DNA from: a plasmid
DNA length: 64,000 bases
Sequence record: CP088595.1
Reading direction: 5' to 3' (one strand)
The translations under genes were made by a program, and so were the position numbers. This document shows positions 1 to 62,216 of this stretch, piece after piece; position 1 is the first letter of the stretch, and each line of letters starts with the position of its first letter. The notes under the pieces are model-generated. The model made no database searches, had not been told where the DNA came from, and was given only the letters and a program-made list of their open reading frames with translations.

Positions 1-429
1 GAAACCTTCACCCTTGACTAGGCCGGCTGCCATGCAGCGCCGCAGCACCTCATTGAATAACCAGCGGAATAGATCGCTGTCACGAAAACGCCCATGGCGA
101 TTCTTCGAGAAGGTCGAGTGATTGGGGACTTCGTCTTCCAGACCCAACCGGCAGAACCAGCGATAGGCCAGGTTCAGGTGCACCTCTTCGCACAATCGCC
201 GCTCGGAACGAATGCCATAGCAGTAGCCGACGACCAGCATGCGCACCATCAACTCCGGGTCAATCGAGGGACGCCCGATGGGGCTATAGAAATCTGCCAG
301 GTAGGCACGTAGATCACTGAGATCCAAGCACTGGTCGATGCTGCGCAGGAGATGTTGGGCCGGGACGTGATCTTCCAGATTGAACGAGTAGAACAGGCGC
401 TGCTGTCCTCCCGGTAACTGTCCCATCAT
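1..429 (-). CDS. DDE transposase, N-terminal part (partial; runs off window)
   Basis: Open minus-strand frame from ATG 429/426 to the window edge. The motifs are transposase-like as above. Confidence 0.6.
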   Translation of the reverse strand, partial: MMGQLPGGQQRLFYSFNLEDHVPAQHLLRSIDQCLDLSDLRAYLADFYSPIGRPSIDPELMVRMLVVGYCYGIRSERRLCEEVHLNLAYRWFCRLGLEDEVPNHSTFSKNRHGRFRDSDLFRWLFNEVLRRCMAAGLVKGEGF

Positions 430-545
430 GCTGTTCGCCCCCACGCTCGCTGACAAAGCAATTTTGCCAACGGCATGGGGAGGCCGCTACTTTTTCAACA
501 GAATCGGCCGCACACAGCCATTCGGCTCAACAGAACCCTGCCTTT
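1..545 (-). mobile_element. Left end of an IS element (IS5/IS1182-superfamily, ISCfr1-like); continues beyond the window start
   Basis: Minus-strand translation from ATG at 429 gives MMGQLPGGQQRLFYSFNLEDHVPAQHLL...SIDPELMVRMLVVGYCYGIRSERRLCEEVHLNLAYRWFCRLGLEDEVPNHSTFSKNRHGRFR, a typical DDE transposase N-terminus (DUF772-like) of IS5/IS1182 families. The terminus is assumed to lie around 480-545. Confidence 0.55.
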
Positions 546-1701
546 ACCCCACCAAACTCCGGAAACTCGCCCGGTAGTCCGTCGGCTTGAGATGCACATG
601 TTGGCTGAGGTCGCCGGGTAGCGTGAACAGGCGCGGACCGTCCCGAAACTGGAACACGCGATACAGATGGAATTGATCGCCCGCCTCCTTGGAGAATTCG
701 AGTTCGTTGTGGCTGACCAAGAAAGACGAGCCTACCCCGCCATTGGTGGTTTTCACCTCGATGAAGCGCTCATGGGCGTCCTCTTCGAACGACAGGATGT
801 CGAACCCCGCACCGTCTCCCTGGGTGTCGGACACCCAATCCAGCCGCTGAAAAAGCTCTGGGTGGCCGAGCTCGGTCAGGCGTTGCTGTTCGTAGCCAAT
901 CACCCACTGCTCCCCTGCCCGGCCCAGCTTGCGGTTGGCTTCATCGCGAGCGGCATAATCGAACTTTCGCGGTAGGCGTTGCCGTAGAGATGCCGGGGTA
1001 CGCACAAGCACTTCACGGGCGGGTGGTTCTACCAAAGCCGCTCGGTAGGTTTTGTCACCCGGAAGTTTTACCTCCTCCAGGGCATCGACAAGAGCGCCGA
1101 CCGTCTGCTGATGTTCCAGAACGTAGGCGTGTACGGATTTACGCAGCAGCAGTTGGCTGTTGCCGCGTGGCTTGTAGCCGTTGATATAGGGCAGGCCCAG
1201 GGCATCGAGTACGGCGCTAATGTTCTGGTGCTTGAGCTCGACTGAAGACTTGCTGCGACCGTTCAGCAGTTGGCGCAGTGCCTGGTTGTGCTCGGACTTG
1301 TGGTACGGCTCCCCAGCCGCCTCGGCACGCAGCATGTCGAAATAGTCTTCGACCGTGGCCAGGACCTCTTCTTCGGACCAGTCTTCGCCGATGCGAATGA
1401 TGCGAAACCCGAGCCGCGTCAGCGCCGGAACGACGGTCGTCTCGCCACCGGAGAAGCTGTCAGCAGTGAGCGGGCCCTGCTCGGGAAATTGCTTGCCGAA
1501 GGCCACACCGGCGATGGCCTTGGAATCGCAATCGGTGCCGGTCTTCGGATCACGTACCAGGAAGTCGCGGGACTTGCCGTAGCCGTGGCGCGCCAGGAAT
1601 TTCGTGCGGCCCAGTTGCACGAACTCATCGATGGCAGCCTGCACGGCGGCGGGGCTTCGAAGCTGGGAGAGTTGAGACACAGGGTCCTTCCTTACTGTCA
1701 T
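544..1701 (-). CDS. Hypothetical protein with a C-terminal PD-(D/E)xK (DUF3883-like) nuclease fold; the N-terminal part may be a DNA-modification reader
   Basis: The ORF track gives 544..1857. The first ~50 aa look non-coding, so I take the start at MTVRKDPVSQ (ATG 1701). The C-terminus GFDILSFEEDAHERFIEVKTT fits a D...E.K nuclease motif. The GC content is high. Confidence 0.45.
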   Translation of the reverse strand: MTVRKDPVSQLSQLRSPAAVQAAIDEFVQLGRTKFLARHGYGKSRDFLVRDPKTGTDCDSKAIAGVAFGKQFPEQGPLTADSFSGGETTVVPALTRLGFRIIRIGEDWSEEEVLATVEDYFDMLRAEAAGEPYHKSEHNQALRQLLNGRSKSSVELKHQNISAVLDALGLPYINGYKPRGNSQLLLRKSVHAYVLEHQQTVGALVDALEEVKLPGDKTYRAALVEPPAREVLVRTPASLRQRLPRKFDYAARDEANRKLGRAGEQWVIGYEQQRLTELGHPELFQRLDWVSDTQGDGAGFDILSFEEDAHERFIEVKTTNGGVGSSFLVSHNELEFSKEAGDQFHLYRVFQFRDGPRLFTLPGDLSQHVHLKPTDYRASFRSLVG

Positions 1702-1730: not shown

Positions 1731-1976
1731 TTATGAGTAGCCCCTGAACAGAAACGTCACGATAAAAGCCGTGAACGCCACCAGGCCCATTAAATCCCTT
1801 GCGTATTTGCAGCCCGTGCTGTCCAAACCTGTACCAGGTCCGATCAACACGCTCCAACCATTGAGGTACGAAAACACCGCCTGACCGAACAAAAAATGCG
1901 TGATAGCCGCCGCAGCCATGACGCCGGAATCGTCAGACAGGCTGTAGCTGTTGACCATTGCCCTGTACGCCTGCAT
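1731..1976 (-). CDS. Small hydrophobic hypothetical protein (81 aa)
   Basis: Listed ORF on the same strand upstream of the nuclease-like ORF, with hydrophobic stretches. There is no other support. Confidence 0.2.
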   Translation of the reverse strand: MQAYRAMVNSYSLSDDSGVMAAAAITHFLFGQAVFSYLNGWSVLIGPGTGLDSTGCKYARDLMGLVAFTAFIVTFLFRGYS

Positions 1977-2262
1977 CTGAAATGGCTATTGCCCTGATGG
2001 GAGCCGGCTTTTCAGCCACCGACACCAGCGATGCCGTCAATATTCTTTACCCGATAACCATGACCGTACAAGCTAACAAGGCCTGGCAAGCCAGCGGACT
2101 TAAAAAGTCTTTTTTTCTACCATCCCACAAAAAAGTTCGTGGTGGAGAAAAGATAAGCTATGCAAGGCTTTAGGAGACGTGGTTTTTCAGGATGACGAAG
2201 AACGATTCGGCGCTAGGTGCAACATAGGTGCATCGCACGAGCGCTAGGAACGGCGAAAAAAG

Positions 2263-2561
2263 GCGGACGTGGCGAAATCGGTAGACGCAGCAGACTTTAA
2301 AATTGGAGTGCCCGCGGGGAAATCCGCGGAGTAGAACCGCTCAAAGTCGGGGAACGCTAACGGGCAATACCCTAAGCCAATCCCGAGCCAAGCCCCTTCG
2401 GGGGAAGGTGTAGAGACTGGACGGGCGGCGCCTAAAGCCTTCGGGCAATGGCGAAGGGACAGTCCAGACCACGAACGTCATCAGACGGCGGCGAAAGTCG
2501 AGGTGGTACGAAAATCTGCTTCTCTGTGAGAGTACGGGTTCGAGTCCCGTCGTCCGCACCA
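2263..2561 (+). tRNA. tRNA-Leu(UAA) gene interrupted by a group I intron in the anticodon loop
   Basis: 5' exon GCGGACGTGGCGAAATCGGTAGACGCAGCAGACTT (2263-2297). 3' exon AAAATCTGC-TTCTCTGTGAGAGT-ACGGGTTCGAGTCCCGT-CGTCCGC-A-CCA (2511-2561). Acceptor stem is a perfect 7 bp (GCGGACG/CGTCCGC). D-arm GCGA-AATCGGTAGA-CGC matches Leu isoacceptors. Anticodon stem GCAGA/TCTGC. The spliced loop CTTAAAA gives anticodon UAA. There is a long variable arm (type II) and a T-arm GGTTCGAGTCC. Confidence 0.65.
2298..2510 (+). ncRNA. Group I self-splicing intron (213 nt) between U34 and A35 of tRNA-Leu(UAA)
   Basis: Inserted after a U and ending in G (omega-G) directly before the 3' exon. The core segment GAAGGTGTAGAGACTGGACGG closely resembles the conserved P7/P3 region of the Azoarcus and cyanobacterial tRNA group I (IC3) introns (AAGGUGUAGAGACUAGACGG). 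The length matches that intron class. Confidence 0.55.
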
Positions 2562-2654
2562 CAAAGCCAAACATCCCTGCGATGATCGACCTCTGGGCGT
2601 TTGGTCGTGAGCCCGCCACCCTCGCGCTACGCTTTGCGCAGGCGTCGAAGGCGA

Positions 2655-3197
2655 TCAGGTGCGCCCATCGATTCCGTCGAGCACCATCGCTGCGAGTTCA
2701 TCGCTGGTGTGTGCACCACTATCGAGAACACGGGTTGTGCATGGAAGCCGTTCCCTTGCGGCCAAGCATCGGGCGACATTCGCTAATCGCCACTCTCGAA
2801 TCTCCGCATTTCGATTCGGGTCAGGATGCATGGTCTGGTTCGCGATCCGGTGACGCAATAGGTCCTCGTTGAGCGTCAGAAAGATGTGCAGCAGCTGATC
2901 GTCGATCCGCCTTACCCCGTCGAGTATCTCAGTCAGATAGTCCGGGTGCACGAGCGTCATTGGGATGATGATGTCCTGCGAGTAATTCCTTCGAATCTCC
3001 CTGACCGCCGCGATCGTAAGTCCCCTCCACAAGGGGAGATCCTGATAGTCTCCGCTCGCTGGCATGGGGACCGTTTCTTTCACCACGAACCCGATTTCCT
3101 CGGGGTCAAAGATCAGCGATTTGGAACGCCGATCGCGCAGCCGCTTAGCGAGCGTCGTCTTTCCGGCGCCGAAAGGTCCGTTGATCCAGATTATCAT
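2655..3197 (-). CDS. tmrB: TmrB-like ATP-binding protein (tunicamycin-resistance protein family), usual partner of aac(3)-II
   Basis: MIIWINGPFGAGKTTLAKRL P-loop N-terminus, 180 aa. It lies immediately downstream of aac(3)-II, as in known aacC2-tmrB modules. Confidence 0.8.
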   Translation of the reverse strand: MIIWINGPFGAGKTTLAKRLRDRRSKSLIFDPEEIGFVVKETVPMPASGDYQDLPLWRGLTIAAVREIRRNYSQDIIIPMTLVHPDYLTEILDGVRRIDDQLLHIFLTLNEDLLRHRIANQTMHPDPNRNAEIREWRLANVARCLAARERLPCTTRVLDSGAHTSDELAAMVLDGIDGRT

Positions 3198-3209
3198 TGT
3201 CGACGGCCT

Positions 3210-4070
3210 CTAACCTGAAGGCTCGCAAGAGCGCTCGACGGCCTCGTGCGGAGGCACGATCGGAGTGGTTCCGAAATGCTTCTCAAGATAGGTGACGCCG
3301 AACGTCACGATGTCCTGCGCGTCGAACAGGTAGCACTGAGCAAAGCCCACGACACCTTCTCGATGGCGACCGAGCTTCACGTAAGCATTTGCTATAGTTT
3401 CAACCGCATCCGGCTTTCCTTCGATAGCAAAGCAATCGAGAATGCCGTTTGAATCGTAATCCGATGCCGTTTTCCAGGCGACTTCACCGTCTCTTCCAAG
3501 CATCGGCATCTCATACGTCACCCACCGTTTGTTGGGGATATCGGCAACCGCCTCGGCGTAGTGCAATGCGGTAACGGAGTTTAGCGGCGCACCCAACAGC
3601 AGGGCCTTCCCGCCAAGGCGAACGAACCGCTCGACGGGCGATCCTTCCCCCAAGGCGTGACCGAGTTCGTGAGGCTCCGTCAGCGTTTCAGCCAGCGGAC
3701 CAACCGCGACCATCGATGCATCGGGGTGCGCGCTGCGCCGCGCGCCGGGGGCTTGAACCAGAAATTGATTCAGCAGGCCGAACCCACGGTAAGTCCCGGC
3801 TGTTGCGGGATCGAACGGCAGCCAGGTACGGCGGGCTTCGTCATCCAGCCGAGCGCCATTCAGAGTCTCCTCGTAGGGTGATCGGTCCCACGACGCGTAT
3901 CCCATCACAGTGCCAGTCGGCCCAACCGCGGAGCGTAACGCGGCAACGACCGTCTCCGCTCCTCCTTCGACCGGACCAATCGCTTTAAGTGAGGCATGCA
4001 CCATCAAGAGGTCACCGGTTTGGACTCCGAGTTTTTGAAGCGCCTCCGTTATTGCCTTCCGCGTATGCAT
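3210..4070 (-). CDS. aac(3)-II: Aminoglycoside 3-N-acetyltransferase AAC(3)-II (gentamicin/tobramycin resistance), 286 aa
   Basis: The protein from the internal Met is MHTRKAITEALQKLGVQTGDLLMVHASLKAIGPVEGGAETVV..., matching the AAC(3)-IIa/d/e family. The listed ORF has a spurious 22-aa N-terminal extension. ATG confirmed at 4070. Confidence 0.9.
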   Translation of the reverse strand: MHTRKAITEALQKLGVQTGDLLMVHASLKAIGPVEGGAETVVAALRSAVGPTGTVMGYASWDRSPYEETLNGARLDDEARRTWLPFDPATAGTYRGFGLLNQFLVQAPGARRSAHPDASMVAVGPLAETLTEPHELGHALGEGSPVERFVRLGGKALLLGAPLNSVTALHYAEAVADIPNKRWVTYEMPMLGRDGEVAWKTASDYDSNGILDCFAIEGKPDAVETIANAYVKLGRHREGVVGFAQCYLFDAQDIVTFGVTYLEKHFGTTPIVPPHEAVERSCEPSG

Positions 4071-4104
4071 CGCGATATCTCCTCTAAACTGCAAAACACT
4101 ATAC

Positions 4105-10655: not shown

Positions 10656-11008
10656 AATGAAAGCACTCCTTATGTACATGCTTAAACAGTAAGTAAAATA
10701 TACAAAGAACACACCATGAAACAAAGGCAGAGATGAACTGTGCGCCCCGATATCTTCTTCTGACATCCTTTCAAATGAATTTTTTTTATTTATATCATGA
10801 CAACATTAACGTTAGAGAATATATCAACCATGTTTCGGTCAGGGTTCAGTCGAATATCAATTCGACTGTCACGCCATAACTGTTACCGCCTCGAGTATAA
10901 ATATTCAGAGAACGGACTTATAAACCATGAAAAATCACCTGACGGAAAATTTACTAATTTATGGATTGTGATATTATTAAAGAGTAAAACCAGCCAGCCG
11001 AGGTATTT

Positions 11009-14277: not shown

Positions 14278-14354
14278 AAGCTGTCGCTTATGGCGGAGCG
14301 ATTGTGCCGTGTATTTATACACTGCACAGGGTTGAATCTCTGGTACGGTTTCAT
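14265..14354 (-). CDS. repY: RepY leader peptide (29 aa) translationally coupled to repZ
   Basis: Minus-strand ORF ATG AAA CCG TAC CAG AGA TTC AAC CCT GTG CAG TGT ATA AAT ... TGA gives MKPYQRFNPVQCINTRHNRSAISDSLWQV. It starts just downstream of stem-loop I and its end overlaps the repZ start. Confidence 0.6.
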   Translation of the reverse strand: MKPYQRFNPVQCINTRHNRSAISDSLWQV

Positions 14355-14360
14355 TATACT
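14332..14360 (+). promoter_or_regulatory. Promoter of the Inc antisense RNA (TTGAAT-17-TATACT)
   Basis: Near-consensus sigma70 -35/-10 with 17-bp spacing on the plus strand, pointing into the repZ leader from the opposite side. Confidence 0.55.
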
Positions 14361-14366
14361 TTACCC

Positions 14367-14442
14367 GTATTCTGTGAGGCCCCCACTATCTTTCGTCGTT
14401 CCGCCAAGTTCGTAAGAAAGATAGTGGGGGTTTTCCTTTTAT
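14367..14442 (+). ncRNA. inc: Inc RNA (RNAI-like antisense RNA controlling repY/repZ translation), about 75 nt
   Basis: Plus strand carries stem-loop GCCCCCACTATCTTTC-loop-GAAAGATAGTGGGGG (14380-14430) followed by a TTTTCCTTTT run. The loop contains CGCCAA, complementary to the conserved 5'-TTGGCG-3' target loop in the repZ leader on the other strand. Confidence 0.6.
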
Positions 14443-15093: not shown

Positions 15094-15430
15094 TTTTGAC
15101 GCTTTTTTGTATGTTTTTTAAGCGGTTAGTTGACTCGGTACGTTATACTAAGTACCCTTTACTGGTCACAGGCAAAACTGTGATCGGGCGTAGGAACCCG
15201 CGTAGTCATCGTCGGCGCAGAAGTTAATTTCTTCATTTGGCGTCGTTTTTTGCCATACCATAAAGACAGGAACTTGTATTTCTTGTCGTCATCTATGGTA
15301 GCTCAGGCGGGGCAGGCATTAGCCTGGCCGGTTTCCGATGACGCCGGTATTCCTACCCCCGTCTGGGCTATCACCAATGAGCGTAGGAACTCGGTGATAG
15401 CGTTTTTAGTTGTCATCGGAGACCGTTGCT

Positions 15431-59882: not shown

Positions 59883-59915
59883 GTCAGTTATAGACAGTTC
59901 TTTTCCGACCAGAGC
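59883..59915. repeat. 33-bp direct repeat, copy 2
   Basis: GTCAGTTATAGACAGTTCTTTTCCGACCAGAGC. Confidence 0.8.
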
Positions 59916-59935
59916 CACCCACTCTGTAACGGAAC

Positions 59936-59969
59936 AGTAAAAAAACCGACCTCACCAGTCGGTTTTTTT
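59936..59969. terminator. Bidirectional hairpin terminator
   Basis: AAAAAAACCGACCTCACCAGTCGGTTTTTTT. Confidence 0.6.
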
Positions 59970-60122
59970 ACATCTGTTGTTTCTCAAAATCCGCCCGACA
60001 TGCCCGTCACACCGGGGAAACTCATGCTTTGAATCAGAACCAATCATCTCAACTTTGCCGTCTCCTGAAAAAACTGGCACATTCAGTTCGATAACTACCC
60101 ATAAATACAGAGAGAAAATCCG

Positions 60123-60445: not shown

Positions 60446-60598
60446 TTAACGTTTAACTTCGTAGGCTAACGTTGCCACAAGCACTGTGTTTCCCTGCTGG
60501 AGCCGGAGTCCGCAAAGCGAATCCCTCACCATCCAGACAAAACACAGAATCGTCACACAGACGACGATTAACATCATTAAAAACGTTCGCTGTGGCAT
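60446..60598 (-). CDS. pndA: PndA, Hok-family membrane toxin (50 aa) of the pnd post-segregational killing locus
   Basis: Minus-strand translation MPQRTFLMMLIVVCVTILCFVWMVRDSLCGLRLQQGNTVLVATLAYEVKR. This is the Hok/PndA family sequence, with stop TAA at 60446-60448. Confidence 0.85.
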   Translation of the reverse strand: MPQRTFLMMLIVVCVTILCFVWMVRDSLCGLRLQQGNTVLVATLAYEVKR

Positions 60599-60737
60599 CA
60601 TAGCCCCTCCATTGCCTTCCGGCGGTTATCGGGCTACTATAATGTTGTTGAGGCATTACAGTAGAGCCCTTGGTTGATTGATAAAAAAATCTCCAGGGGC
60701 TTTCTGCTGTATACCGTCCACAAAACGCTTTCGGCAT
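60453..60737 (-). CDS. pndC: PndC (Mok-like overlapping reading frame needed for pndA translation)
   Basis: Listed minus-strand ORF overlapping pndA in another frame, as mok overlaps hok. The true start within this frame is uncertain. Confidence 0.45.
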   Translation of the reverse strand: MPKAFCGRYTAESPWRFFYQSTKGSTVMPQQHYSSPITAGRQWRGYDATANVFNDVNRRLCDDSVFCLDGEGFALRTPAPAGKHSACGNVSLRS

Positions 60738-60796
60738 ACAGCCTCAAGCGCCCGCAGCTATTCTAACGACTTTCGTATCTGTAACAATCCTTTTAT
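60632..60796. repeat. 165-bp pnd control-region module, copy A (native, attached to pndCA)
   Basis: About 95 percent identical to 62053-62216. Contains the Sok-like promoter and terminator and, on the minus strand, the pnd mRNA promoter TTGTTA-N16-TAGAAT. Confidence 0.85.
60648..60712 (+). ncRNA. pndB: PndB (Sok-like) antisense RNA, predicted
   Basis: Plus-strand TATAAT at 60638-60643. It is followed by roughly 65 nt complementary to the pndA mRNA leader, ending in the hairpin AGCCCTTGG...CCAGGGGCT plus TTTCTGCTG. Confidence 0.45.
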
Positions 60797-62004: not shown

Positions 62005-62052
62005 CCTGAAAAGTATCTTTTCCGGTAGGATGTACACATATCTAAATTATCA

Positions 62053-62216
62053 GGCTACTATAATGTTGTCTAGGCATTACAGTAGAGCCCTTGGTTGATT
62101 GATAAAAAATCTCCAGGGGGCTTTCTGCTGTATACCATCCACAAAACGCTTTCGGCATACAGCCTCAAGCGTCCGCGGCTATTCTAACGACTTTCGTATC
62201 TGCAACAATCCTTTTA
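62053..62216. repeat. 165-bp pnd control-region module, copy B (orphan, adjacent to trbA)
   Basis: Retains the TATAAT and Sok-like hairpin on the plus strand and the TTGTTG-N16-TAGAAT promoter on the minus strand. No hok-like ORF follows it. Confidence 0.85.

Follow-up and report, generated by a model that had tools for sequence, protein, structure and literature searches.

A gamma-proteobacterial tRNA-Leu intron was reportedly described by Vepritskiy et al. in 2002, and group I introns of tRNA-Leu(UAA) are an already known and common kind that is widespread in Alphaproteobacteria. An insertion point of the form CUU/...g/AAAA corresponds to Williams' class Leu.3Ug (bioRxiv 10.1101/2020.01.27.920355). 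From resistance plasmids, a block with the order aacC2-tmrB-orf192-orf228-orf1182-ISCfr1 has been described that replaces tnpR-res-tnpA of Tn2; a tRNA is not mentioned (PMC7096625). We analyzed a plasmid stretch of 64,000 nucleotides (nt; sequence record CP088595.1, here 'the window') that contains the same DNA as this module in pEl1573 (JX101693) and pCTX-M3 (NC_004464; PMC7096625), and within it the positions 2263–2561, next to the genes aac(3)-IId and tmrB. An earlier note, made from the letters alone, had placed a tRNA gene there. Sequence comparison makes it highly probable that this locus is an intact tRNA-Leu(UAA) gene with a group I intron, carried along as a passenger from a Rhizobiaceae-like donor and joined to a Pseudomonadaceae-type piece.

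The earlier note had described a complete type II tRNA-Leu split after U34 by an insert of 213 nt that follows a U and ends in G. Its coordinates proved exact, and both the U·G wobble and the terminal G were seen. Joining the exons in silico gave an 86-nt sequence that ARAGORN called tRNA-Leu(taa), with a 7-bp acceptor stem, the 5-bp anticodon stem GCAGA/TCTGC, a long variable arm, a T-arm, discriminator A73 and an encoded CCA; all 25 cloverleaf pairs form, as the note had expected of the spliced product. The junction reads GCAGACUU joined to AAAAUCUGC, with G2510 directly 5' of AAAAUCUGC, and the 5' exon is the same as in the closest homologues. On the unspliced DNA, ARAGORN performed less well: in default mode it reported no tRNA in the whole window, and in intron mode it misplaced the junction, proposing a tRNA-Stop(tta) with a 221-nt intron, which we dropped in favor of the U-1/omega-G junction that restores CUUAAAA. 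The covariance-model match that the note had called for was obtained with the Rfam family Intron_gpI (RF00028), which aligned over its full model (1–253) to 2288–2480 with 36.8 bits and E = 7e-8 in a 501-base search at permissive thresholds, though below the family's gathering score of 50.

Helices P1–P9 were drawn from the window sequence under the guidance of Williams' curated alignment of bacterial tRNA introns. P1 is made of exon ACUU and intron GGAGU with a U·G wobble at the splice site, and all of its pairs form (A32–U47, C33–G46, U34–A45, U35·G44, U36·G43 and A37–U42). P3 and P7 form the pseudoknot usual for group I introns, GAAA tetraloops cap P2 and P9b, and, in our own reading of the sequence, CCUAAG-like receptor motifs lie in P5 and P8. 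In the window copy, all 63 intron pairs (14 helices) and all 25 tRNA pairs are standard. A minimum free energy fold of the single sequence recovered the nested helices, but at −1.2 its z-score carries no information.

The structure was evaluated on 51 full-length pre-tRNA-Leu(UAA) sequences that are 73–95% identical to the window. Across them, 96.5% of the cells were paired in the intron, compared with 28–49% when the 3' partners were slid, and 98.7% in the cloverleaf including the intron-spanning stem, compared with 35–53%; these percentages favor the structure over the slid controls in part because it was written from the window sequence itself. Compensatory double changes occurred in 31 of 63 intron pairs, including P3 (CG/UA 35:16), P7 (AU/GC 39:12) and P8 (GC/AU 34:16), and in 14 of 25 cloverleaf pairs, among them three of the five in the intron-spanning anticodon stem; none of 500 shuffles matched the observed covariation in either the intron or the cloverleaf. 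The U·G column pair of P1 was invariant in 51/51 sequences, as were the terminal G and the core, and two distal P1 pairs covaried. Of 216 columns with a conservation of 90% or higher in the remaining 50 sequences, the window copy keeps 215, and the single deviating one also deviates in its closest relative. Its differences from close relatives fall in loops or are compensated, as in U216–A223 versus C–G. The note had anticipated both a foldable P1–P9 and an intact intron, and the standard pairs, strong covariation and retained core bear it out. Judged by pairing and conservation, the plasmid copy is undamaged and belongs to an RNA family under constraint. Because the intron is structurally intact, it is plausibly able to splice. 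By steps inferred from the intron family, the precursor would fold P1–P9 and the 5' exon end ACUU would pair with the internal guide GGAGU, leaving a U·G wobble; free guanosine would then attack 3' of U34, the terminal G would enter the G site, and ligation of the exons would release an 86-nt tRNA whose CCA is encoded.

Relatives were collected by a genome pattern scan, with one genome per species, for the core plus G/AAAAT at the right distance. At least 120 loci were found, about two-thirds of them Alphaproteobacteria by record title and the rest Acidobacteriota, Eremiobacterota and some Beta- and Gammaproteobacteria. The view in the earlier note that such introns are a hallmark of cyanobacteria, plastids and a few proteobacteria is, by this distribution, too narrow. 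Homologues were present in 119 of the 120 independent genomic loci listed, 70 of them at full length. Because these homologues exist and the proposed pairs covary, chance can be set aside as an explanation of the plasmid match. The core pattern alone (AGGTGTAGAGACTRGACGG) was discarded as a search, being so common that it returned more than 120 viral contigs, all distant.

Among the matches listed, the tRNA with its intron is most similar to Enterovirga aerilata (95.4%), a Bradyrhizobiaceae metagenome-assembled genome (MAG; 95.0%), a Novosphingobium MAG (93.4%) and Mesorhizobium sp. BR1-1-16 (90.7%); a metagenome contig (L267) is 95.0% identical, and the one metagenome match in the donor search reached 90%. 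Homology to these relatives extends upstream to 2096 and, in every one, stops precisely at CCA. The closest non-enteric relatives of the tmrB product, by amino acid (aa) identity, are of the Brucella intermedia type (97%), a Sinorhizobium-syntenic metagenome locus (88%) and Sinorhizobium meliloti (81%). At the nucleotide level, tmrB–aac(3) (2657–4104) is 86.3% identical to loci L122–L124 and 84% to L272, and aac(3) is 81% identical to L269. Loci L122–L124 are metagenome contigs syntenic with S. meliloti, in which BA14K/DJ-1 genes on one side and AttH-FtsX-ABC genes on the other enclose an aac(3)-like gene and tmrB; L272 is a further locus of this kind. The acetyltransferase is missing from S. 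meliloti, which has only tmrB of the pair. A tblastn search with tmrB, AAC(3), DUF3883 and the small open reading frames (ORFs) against the 120 tRNA-Leu-intron loci listed revealed no linkage.

The two halves meet in loci L269–L271 (two ENA assemblies and one Logan assembly; ERZ23872204, ERZ23872229 and SRR10763718), which align continuously at 81% identity with window positions 2467–4094. The alignment comprises aac(3), tmrB, the spacer, the whole of the 3' exon and the terminal 44 nt of the intron, leaving a 95-nt tRNA remnant; DNA upstream of it is unrelated. On its other side, L269 matches Shinella plasmids at 88% and S. meliloti pSymA at 85% identity. A Brucella (Ochrobactrum) intermedia/Pseudomonas-type mobile module is 94.6% identical over 2575–4104, shares the spacer part 2575–2656 and lacks the tRNA-Leu, and aac(3)-IIe plasmids (784 PLSDB records) are 96.5% identical over 2645–4104, followed by an insertion sequence (IS) remnant and no tRNA. 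These two alleles put the joint at 2562–2574 in question, which L269–L271 resolve. Because a lineage that has diverged by about 20% shows the same tail-to-tail arrangement in Rhizobiaceae-like DNA, the tRNA/tmrB adjacency is natural and older than the capture, and 2096–4104 is best read as one segment; by its relatives, this segment is alphaproteobacterial in origin. The donor would be a replicon of a Rhizobiaceae-like alphaproteobacterium (order Hyphomicrobiales) in which the tRNA gene and tmrB–aac(3) stood tail to tail, and the tRNA gene a passenger taken together with ~165 nt of upstream DNA, the 95-nt spacer, tmrB and aac(3)-IId. The earlier suggestion that the tRNA points to the donor lineage of aac(3)-II/tmrB thus gains from L269–L271. 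A neighborhood of tRNA, intron and tmrB, which the note had hoped to find on a chromosome, was recovered there with the 95-nt remnant, without the exact donor, and the tie to aac(3)-II narrows to the aac(3)-IId lineage, as it does not extend to aac(3)-IIe or the Brucella-type alleles.

The note had taken the whole island for one captured tRNA-linked segment. This view survives for 2096–4104 and fails for the IS/DUF3883/orf228 part, which is of Pseudomonas/Stutzerimonas type; for 1958–2095, no relative was present in any collection searched besides copies of the module, and PLSDB contained no diverged one. The alignments show a mosaic island, broken at about 505, 1957 and 2096. Metagenome contigs L264–L266 contain an operon of a 1,706-aa DEAD/UvrD helicase, a 100-aa ORF and a NOV_C gene; orf228 is this 100-aa ORF cut at its 5' end, and the helicase is gone from the plasmids. 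By these matches, the ISCfr1–DUF3883–orf228 piece (about 1–1957) derives from a Pseudomonadaceae-type helicase–orf100–NOV_C operon and is not alphaproteobacterial. The segment 2096–4104 would have been joined to this unrelated piece on mobile DNA, and the resulting ISCfr1 module would subsequently have spread through IS26/Tn2. Coordinates are collected in Table 1.

Table 1. Features of the resistance module and of the split tRNA gene (window positions; +/−, strand).
Feature	Position	Strand	Remarks
ISCfr1-like IS and DUF3883/NOV_C	2–1679		Nearest: Stutzerimonas kunmingensis contig (L130), 86.4%
DUF3883/NOV_C gene (553–1680) and 5'-truncated orf228 (1731–1958)	506–1957	−	94.5% nt identity to L264–L266
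Junction piece, 138 nt, part of annotated 'orf192'	1958–2095		Operon homology stops at 1957, alphaproteobacterial homology starts at 2096
Alphaproteobacterial upstream region	2096–2262	+	Relic tail 2096–2105 (GGACTTAAAA), spacer 2106–2262
tRNA-Leu(UAA) 5' exon, 35 nt, ends GCAGACTT	2263–2297	+	Acceptor 5' strand, D-arm, anticodon stem 5' strand, C32 U33 U34
Group I intron, 213 nt, first base T, last base G	2298–2510	+	Rfam match, pairs, covariation
P1	2294–2309		U-1·G wobble, 2297·2306
P2	2312–2329		GAAA loop
P3	2337–2342 with 2423–2428
P4	2347–2352 with 2381–2386
P5–P5a	2356–2377
P6–P6a	2387–2409
P7	2413–2419 with 2460–2465
P8–P8a	2429–2453
P9–P9a–P9b	2468–2507		GAAA loop
Terminal (omega) G	2510
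tRNA-Leu(UAA) 3' exon, 51 nt, AAAATCTGC...CGTCCGCACCA	2511–2561	+	A35 A36, anticodon stem 3' strand, long variable arm, T-arm, acceptor 3' strand, A73, CCA
Spacer, tRNA 3' end to tmrB stop codon	2562–2656		Unbroken alignment from tRNA remnant to tmrB in L269
tmrB-like AAA/P-loop kinase-fold ATPase, 180 aa	2655–3197	−	Convergent with the tRNA
aac(3)-IId aminoglycoside acetyltransferase	3210–4070	−	Homology to chromosomal relatives extends to 4104

Several results weigh against the interpretation of an intact, captured and alphaproteobacterial tRNA gene. The exact donor was not found in the collections searched, where identity peaked at 95% for the tRNA and at 86% for chromosomal tmrB–aac(3), and statements on the closest tRNA relatives rest on the scan of at least 120 loci, beyond which closer relatives may exist. 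In L269–L271, the tRNA is a 3' remnant only, and the Ensifer-like loci (L122–L124 and L272) and the Brucella-type loci (L257–L262) have no tRNA-Leu beside tmrB. The Rfam score misses the curated threshold. With 8 of 12 matches as the minimum, a scan of the 170 nt upstream of the tRNA detected no sigma-70-like promoter, and no terminator-like site was seen around the gene. Because neither was found, the gene may be silent in E. coli, and its splicing, transcription and aminoacylation are steps that we infer. None of 13 chromosomal homologues (L203, L144, L145, L255, L138, L171, L232, L161, L198, L151, L183, L160 and L267) reached the Intron_gpI gathering score, default ARAGORN missed the split tRNA in all eight of these on which it was run, and none of the 12 Intron_gpI seeds examined by Williams is bacterial (bioRxiv 10.1101/2020.01.27.920355). 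The score is a limit of the model and not a structural failure; likewise, the silence at this site of default ARAGORN and of the Rfam gathering-threshold scan, which returned only plasmid-backbone RNAs in the window, is a limit of sensitivity and not absence.

Other explanations were considered for the locus and its neighborhood. A 92-aa minus-strand ORF (2341–2619) is present in the window, and tblastn gave 'homologues' in many loci; these matches are a translated conserved RNA gene, are split across frames in many relatives (such as L144, L200, L213 and L241) and follow in their conservation the paired RNA helices, with the ORF running antisense through the tRNA, and we rejected it as a gene, giving a protein-coding role practically no credence. 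A more serious alternative holds that the tRNA piece and the tmrB–aac(3) piece were joined only on mobile DNA, which would make the tRNA uninformative about the aac(3)-II donor. The module is demonstrably mosaic, with the three breakpoints given above, and homology to the closest allele, the Brucella-type one, ends at 2575, only 13 nt from the tRNA. We nevertheless regard such a late joining as very unlikely: L269–L271 keep the spacer and tRNA remnant in the same place and orientation in Rhizobiaceae-like DNA, and both pieces are, independently of each other, nearest to alphaproteobacterial (Hyphomicrobiales) relatives. The abrupt end of the tRNA homology at CCA, with tmrB-side DNA beginning no more than 13 nt away, could also be the trace of an attachment site, the tRNA-Leu having served an integrative island or integrative and conjugative element (ICE) with tmrB–aac(3) at its tRNA-proximal edge. 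The Brucella-type allele would fit this, as it lies among ICE- or plasmid-transfer genes and faces, in convergent orientation and 262 nt past the shared flank, a 47-nt 3' fragment of tRNA-Gly(GCC), and L144 and L259 have ars operons of 80% identity, by the tRNA-Leu in the former and near tmrB in the latter. On the other side, the 26-nt tRNA 3' end is single-copy in the window with up to three mismatches allowed, no integrase adjoins the tRNA in the window (none is annotated in the module) or in L269–L271, and Ensifer-like genomes hold the gene pair in a conserved chromosomal neighborhood without a tRNA. The far end of an island may have been lost on capture; the attachment-site idea is weakened by these findings, and we consider it unlikely.

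A further alternative accepts most of the interpretation preferred here, capture of an intact gene from a Rhizobiaceae-like donor, and departs from it on expression only: the split tRNA would be a dead relic in its present hosts, structurally perfect only through its recent capture, never transcribed or spliced in enterobacteria and without effect. To this we assign not much less than an even chance. The promoter and terminator scans fit it, and over the 421 bases surrounding the gene, 1,312 of 1,316 matching PLSDB plasmids show an identity of at least 99%, leaving no time for decay or visible selection. The gene is also dispensable for resistance, being absent from ~17% of aac(3)-IId plasmids (1,316 versus 1,576 PLSDB records) and from 784/784 aac(3)-IIe plasmids. 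Against it, a consensus scan cannot exclude read-through from neighboring genes or weak promoters, and efficient splicing in E. coli or in vitro is known for related IC3 tRNA introns (Anabaena and Azoarcus). Because no promoter or terminator was found and many aac(3) plasmids do without it, we view the tRNA in enterobacteria as probably dispensable and, expressed or not, as a passenger.

The upstream DNA that arrived with the gene carries a trace of its own history. The five closest chromosomal relatives, L203, L144 (3523–3561), L145, L255 and L253, and also L267 contain the full 39 nt of a 5' relic left by an intronless tRNA-Leu(UAA); ~155 nt separate it from the intron-bearing gene, and it starts 193–220 nt upstream of that gene. 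Its 3' end falls within the anticodon loop (CTTAAAA), 4 nt beyond the point at which the intron is inserted, and together with the adjoining AAGTCTTTT it forms a hairpin plus T-run; of the relic, the window retains the last 10 nt. Among the matches listed, it is confined to a clade of 85–95% identity (5 of 119 loci) that comprises Enterovirga, the Bradyrhizobiaceae MAG, Mesorhizobium, Novosphingobium and Sphingomonas, joined by one metagenome contig, and spans Hyphomicrobiales and Sphingomonadales, while tRNA-Leu introns in other members of these two orders are only 70–75% identical. Because the clade spans two orders whose other introns are this distant, the pattern suggests horizontal replacement of a resident tRNA-Leu by the intron-bearing allele. 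A search downstream of the cassette for the displaced 3' half of the resident tRNA gave only chance matches in coding DNA. More speculatively, the plasmid fragment could be a piece of a mobile 'replacement cassette', consisting of a ~155-nt spacer and an intron-bearing tRNA-Leu(UAA), that lies directly behind the relic in this clade and takes the place of the resident gene by exon-guided recombination or an aberrant form of homing-type repair. We find this doubtful; if true, clinical enterobacteria would have received, with the resistance module, a cassette of this kind that may still splice.

The gene is widely distributed. NC_004464.2 and >1,200 other plasmids match the window segment at 100% identity, and PLSDB hosts include Escherichia, Klebsiella, Salmonella, Acinetobacter, Enterobacter, Aeromonas, Pseudomonas, Vibrio and others. 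Among complete E. coli genomes, 646 of 5,426 (~12%) contain it, at 601 plasmid and 82 chromosomal places. In all records listed from PLSDB and the E. coli genomes, the feature column under the match reads 'none', and two annotations by PGAP, viewed in full, show a hypothetical protein followed by an AAA ATPase with no tRNA in between. The known descriptions of the module and the PGAP/PLSDB annotations inspected thus contain ORFs only; the tRNA, its intron and the alpha/gamma mosaic are absent. In the literature searched, no paper connects a group I intron with tmrB, or tmrB with rhizobial taxa. As regards the literature, the earlier note was right to call such an intron unexpected on enterobacterial plasmids, yet ~1,300 of these plasmids have it. 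Distant-mode PLSDB searches with 1681–2097 and with the tRNA itself returned no useful diverged plasmid relatives. Two candidates were discarded: P0005 (Salmonella, 89% in tmrB) is the enteric module interrupted by an IS91-family element, and P0297/L263 copies the enteric module with many sequence errors.

Further observations concern the surroundings of these genes. Chromosomal pairs of an aac(3)-like gene and tmrB occupy 7127–8564 in L122/L123, 5132–6543 in L272 and 8001–8567 in L126/L127, in a Sinorhizobium/Ensifer-type neighborhood with Metal_resist, sigma-70, EF-hand and BA14K genes. The tRNA-Gly(GCC) 3' fragment is at 10883–10929 (minus strand) in L257 and is the same in L258, L259, L260 and L262, always convergent with tmrB; it is 85% identical to E. 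coli tRNA-Gly, with no complete tRNA there, and was confirmed by BLAST, while Rfam gave no match on the Brucella-type flank. The ars operon (ACR3, ArsC, low-molecular-weight phosphatase-type ArsC and ArsR) covers 4894–7291 in L144, a Bradyrhizobiaceae genome, just downstream of the tRNA-Leu cassette, and its counterpart (80% nucleotide identity) covers 7197–9594 in L259, downstream of tmrB in the Brucella-type mobile context. The plasmid 'orf1182', a DUF3883/NOV_C gene that includes a ScoMcrA_N domain, and 'orf228' together are the rear part of the three-gene operon; helicase–orf100–NOV_C operons are typical of Pseudomonas/Stutzerimonas defense islands. Elsewhere in the window, backbone RNAs lie at 14290–14438, 15291–15378, 59884–59971, 60596–60753 and 62017–62174; they are a repZ pseudoknot (IncI-type replication control), a C4 antisense RNA, AgrB and two sok antitoxin RNAs, the second sok with a lower score and a diverged 3' end.

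These data bear on the origin of a clinically distributed resistance gene and on how its surroundings are annotated. A 2021 list of origins of mobile resistance genes names, for aminoglycosides, only APH(3')-VI and AAC(6')-Ih and never mentions Alphaproteobacteria; an origin for aac(3)-II is missing from it (PMC7782503). The chromosomal aac(3)–tmrB pairs would narrow the search to Rhizobiaceae-like Hyphomicrobiales, for which the block of tRNA, intron, spacer, tmrB and aac(3) (2096–4104) could serve as a lineage-specific marker of the donor. A catalytic-RNA gene in ~12% of complete E. coli genomes and on ~1,300 resistance plasmids is absent from the annotations inspected, and the tRNA-Leu group I intron family as a whole escapes routine annotation. 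The module also offers a natural test of the expression and processing of an alphaproteobacterial group I intron/tRNA in enterobacteria.

Compared with known systems, the novelty of this intron is its location on resistance plasmids and not its kind. By insertion point and predicted fold, it is a member of Williams' classical class Leu.3Ug, with a small, GC-rich, Azoarcus-like IC3 architecture. With the class (seed Ncf2.Leu.3Ug) it shares the host tRNA, insertion point, helices and U-1/omega-G at 78–81% identity; identities to proteobacterial seeds (Leu.3Ug Ncf2, Thr.3Ug and Arg.5Ug) are 78–82%. The plasmid copy differs from the class in residing on enterobacterial, Acinetobacter and Aeromonas resistance plasmids adjoining aac(3)-IId, and it is not named in the Williams 2020 survey or in the resistance literature searched. 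The cyanobacterial/plastid tRNA-Leu(UAA) intron (Anabaena/Nostoc type; seed Sel1.Leu.3Ug) has the same insertion site and overall IC3 fold, but its identity to the plasmid intron is 62–70%, its peripheral helices differ and its P7 core is GGUGCAGAGACU, not GGUGUAGAGACU; on these grounds, the plasmid intron is of proteobacterial and not cyanobacterial type. The core quoted in the earlier note (GAAGGTGTAGAGACTGGACGG) differs by a single base from the Azoarcus seed in Williams' alignment, upholding the proposed likeness to the Azoarcus type (1 of 21 bases in the J6/7–P7 core). The introns of Azoarcus sp. BH72 tRNA-Ile(CAU) (Aol6.Ile2.5Ug) and of Agrobacterium-type tRNA-Arg(CCU) (Rur1.Arg.5Ug) are, like the plasmid intron, small, GC-rich and ORF-less, with GAAA tetraloops on P2 and P9 and CCUAAG-like receptors in P5 and P8. 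Both differ from it in their host tRNA and position in the anticodon loop, at 65–67% identity for the Azoarcus and 72–80% for the Agrobacterium-type intron.

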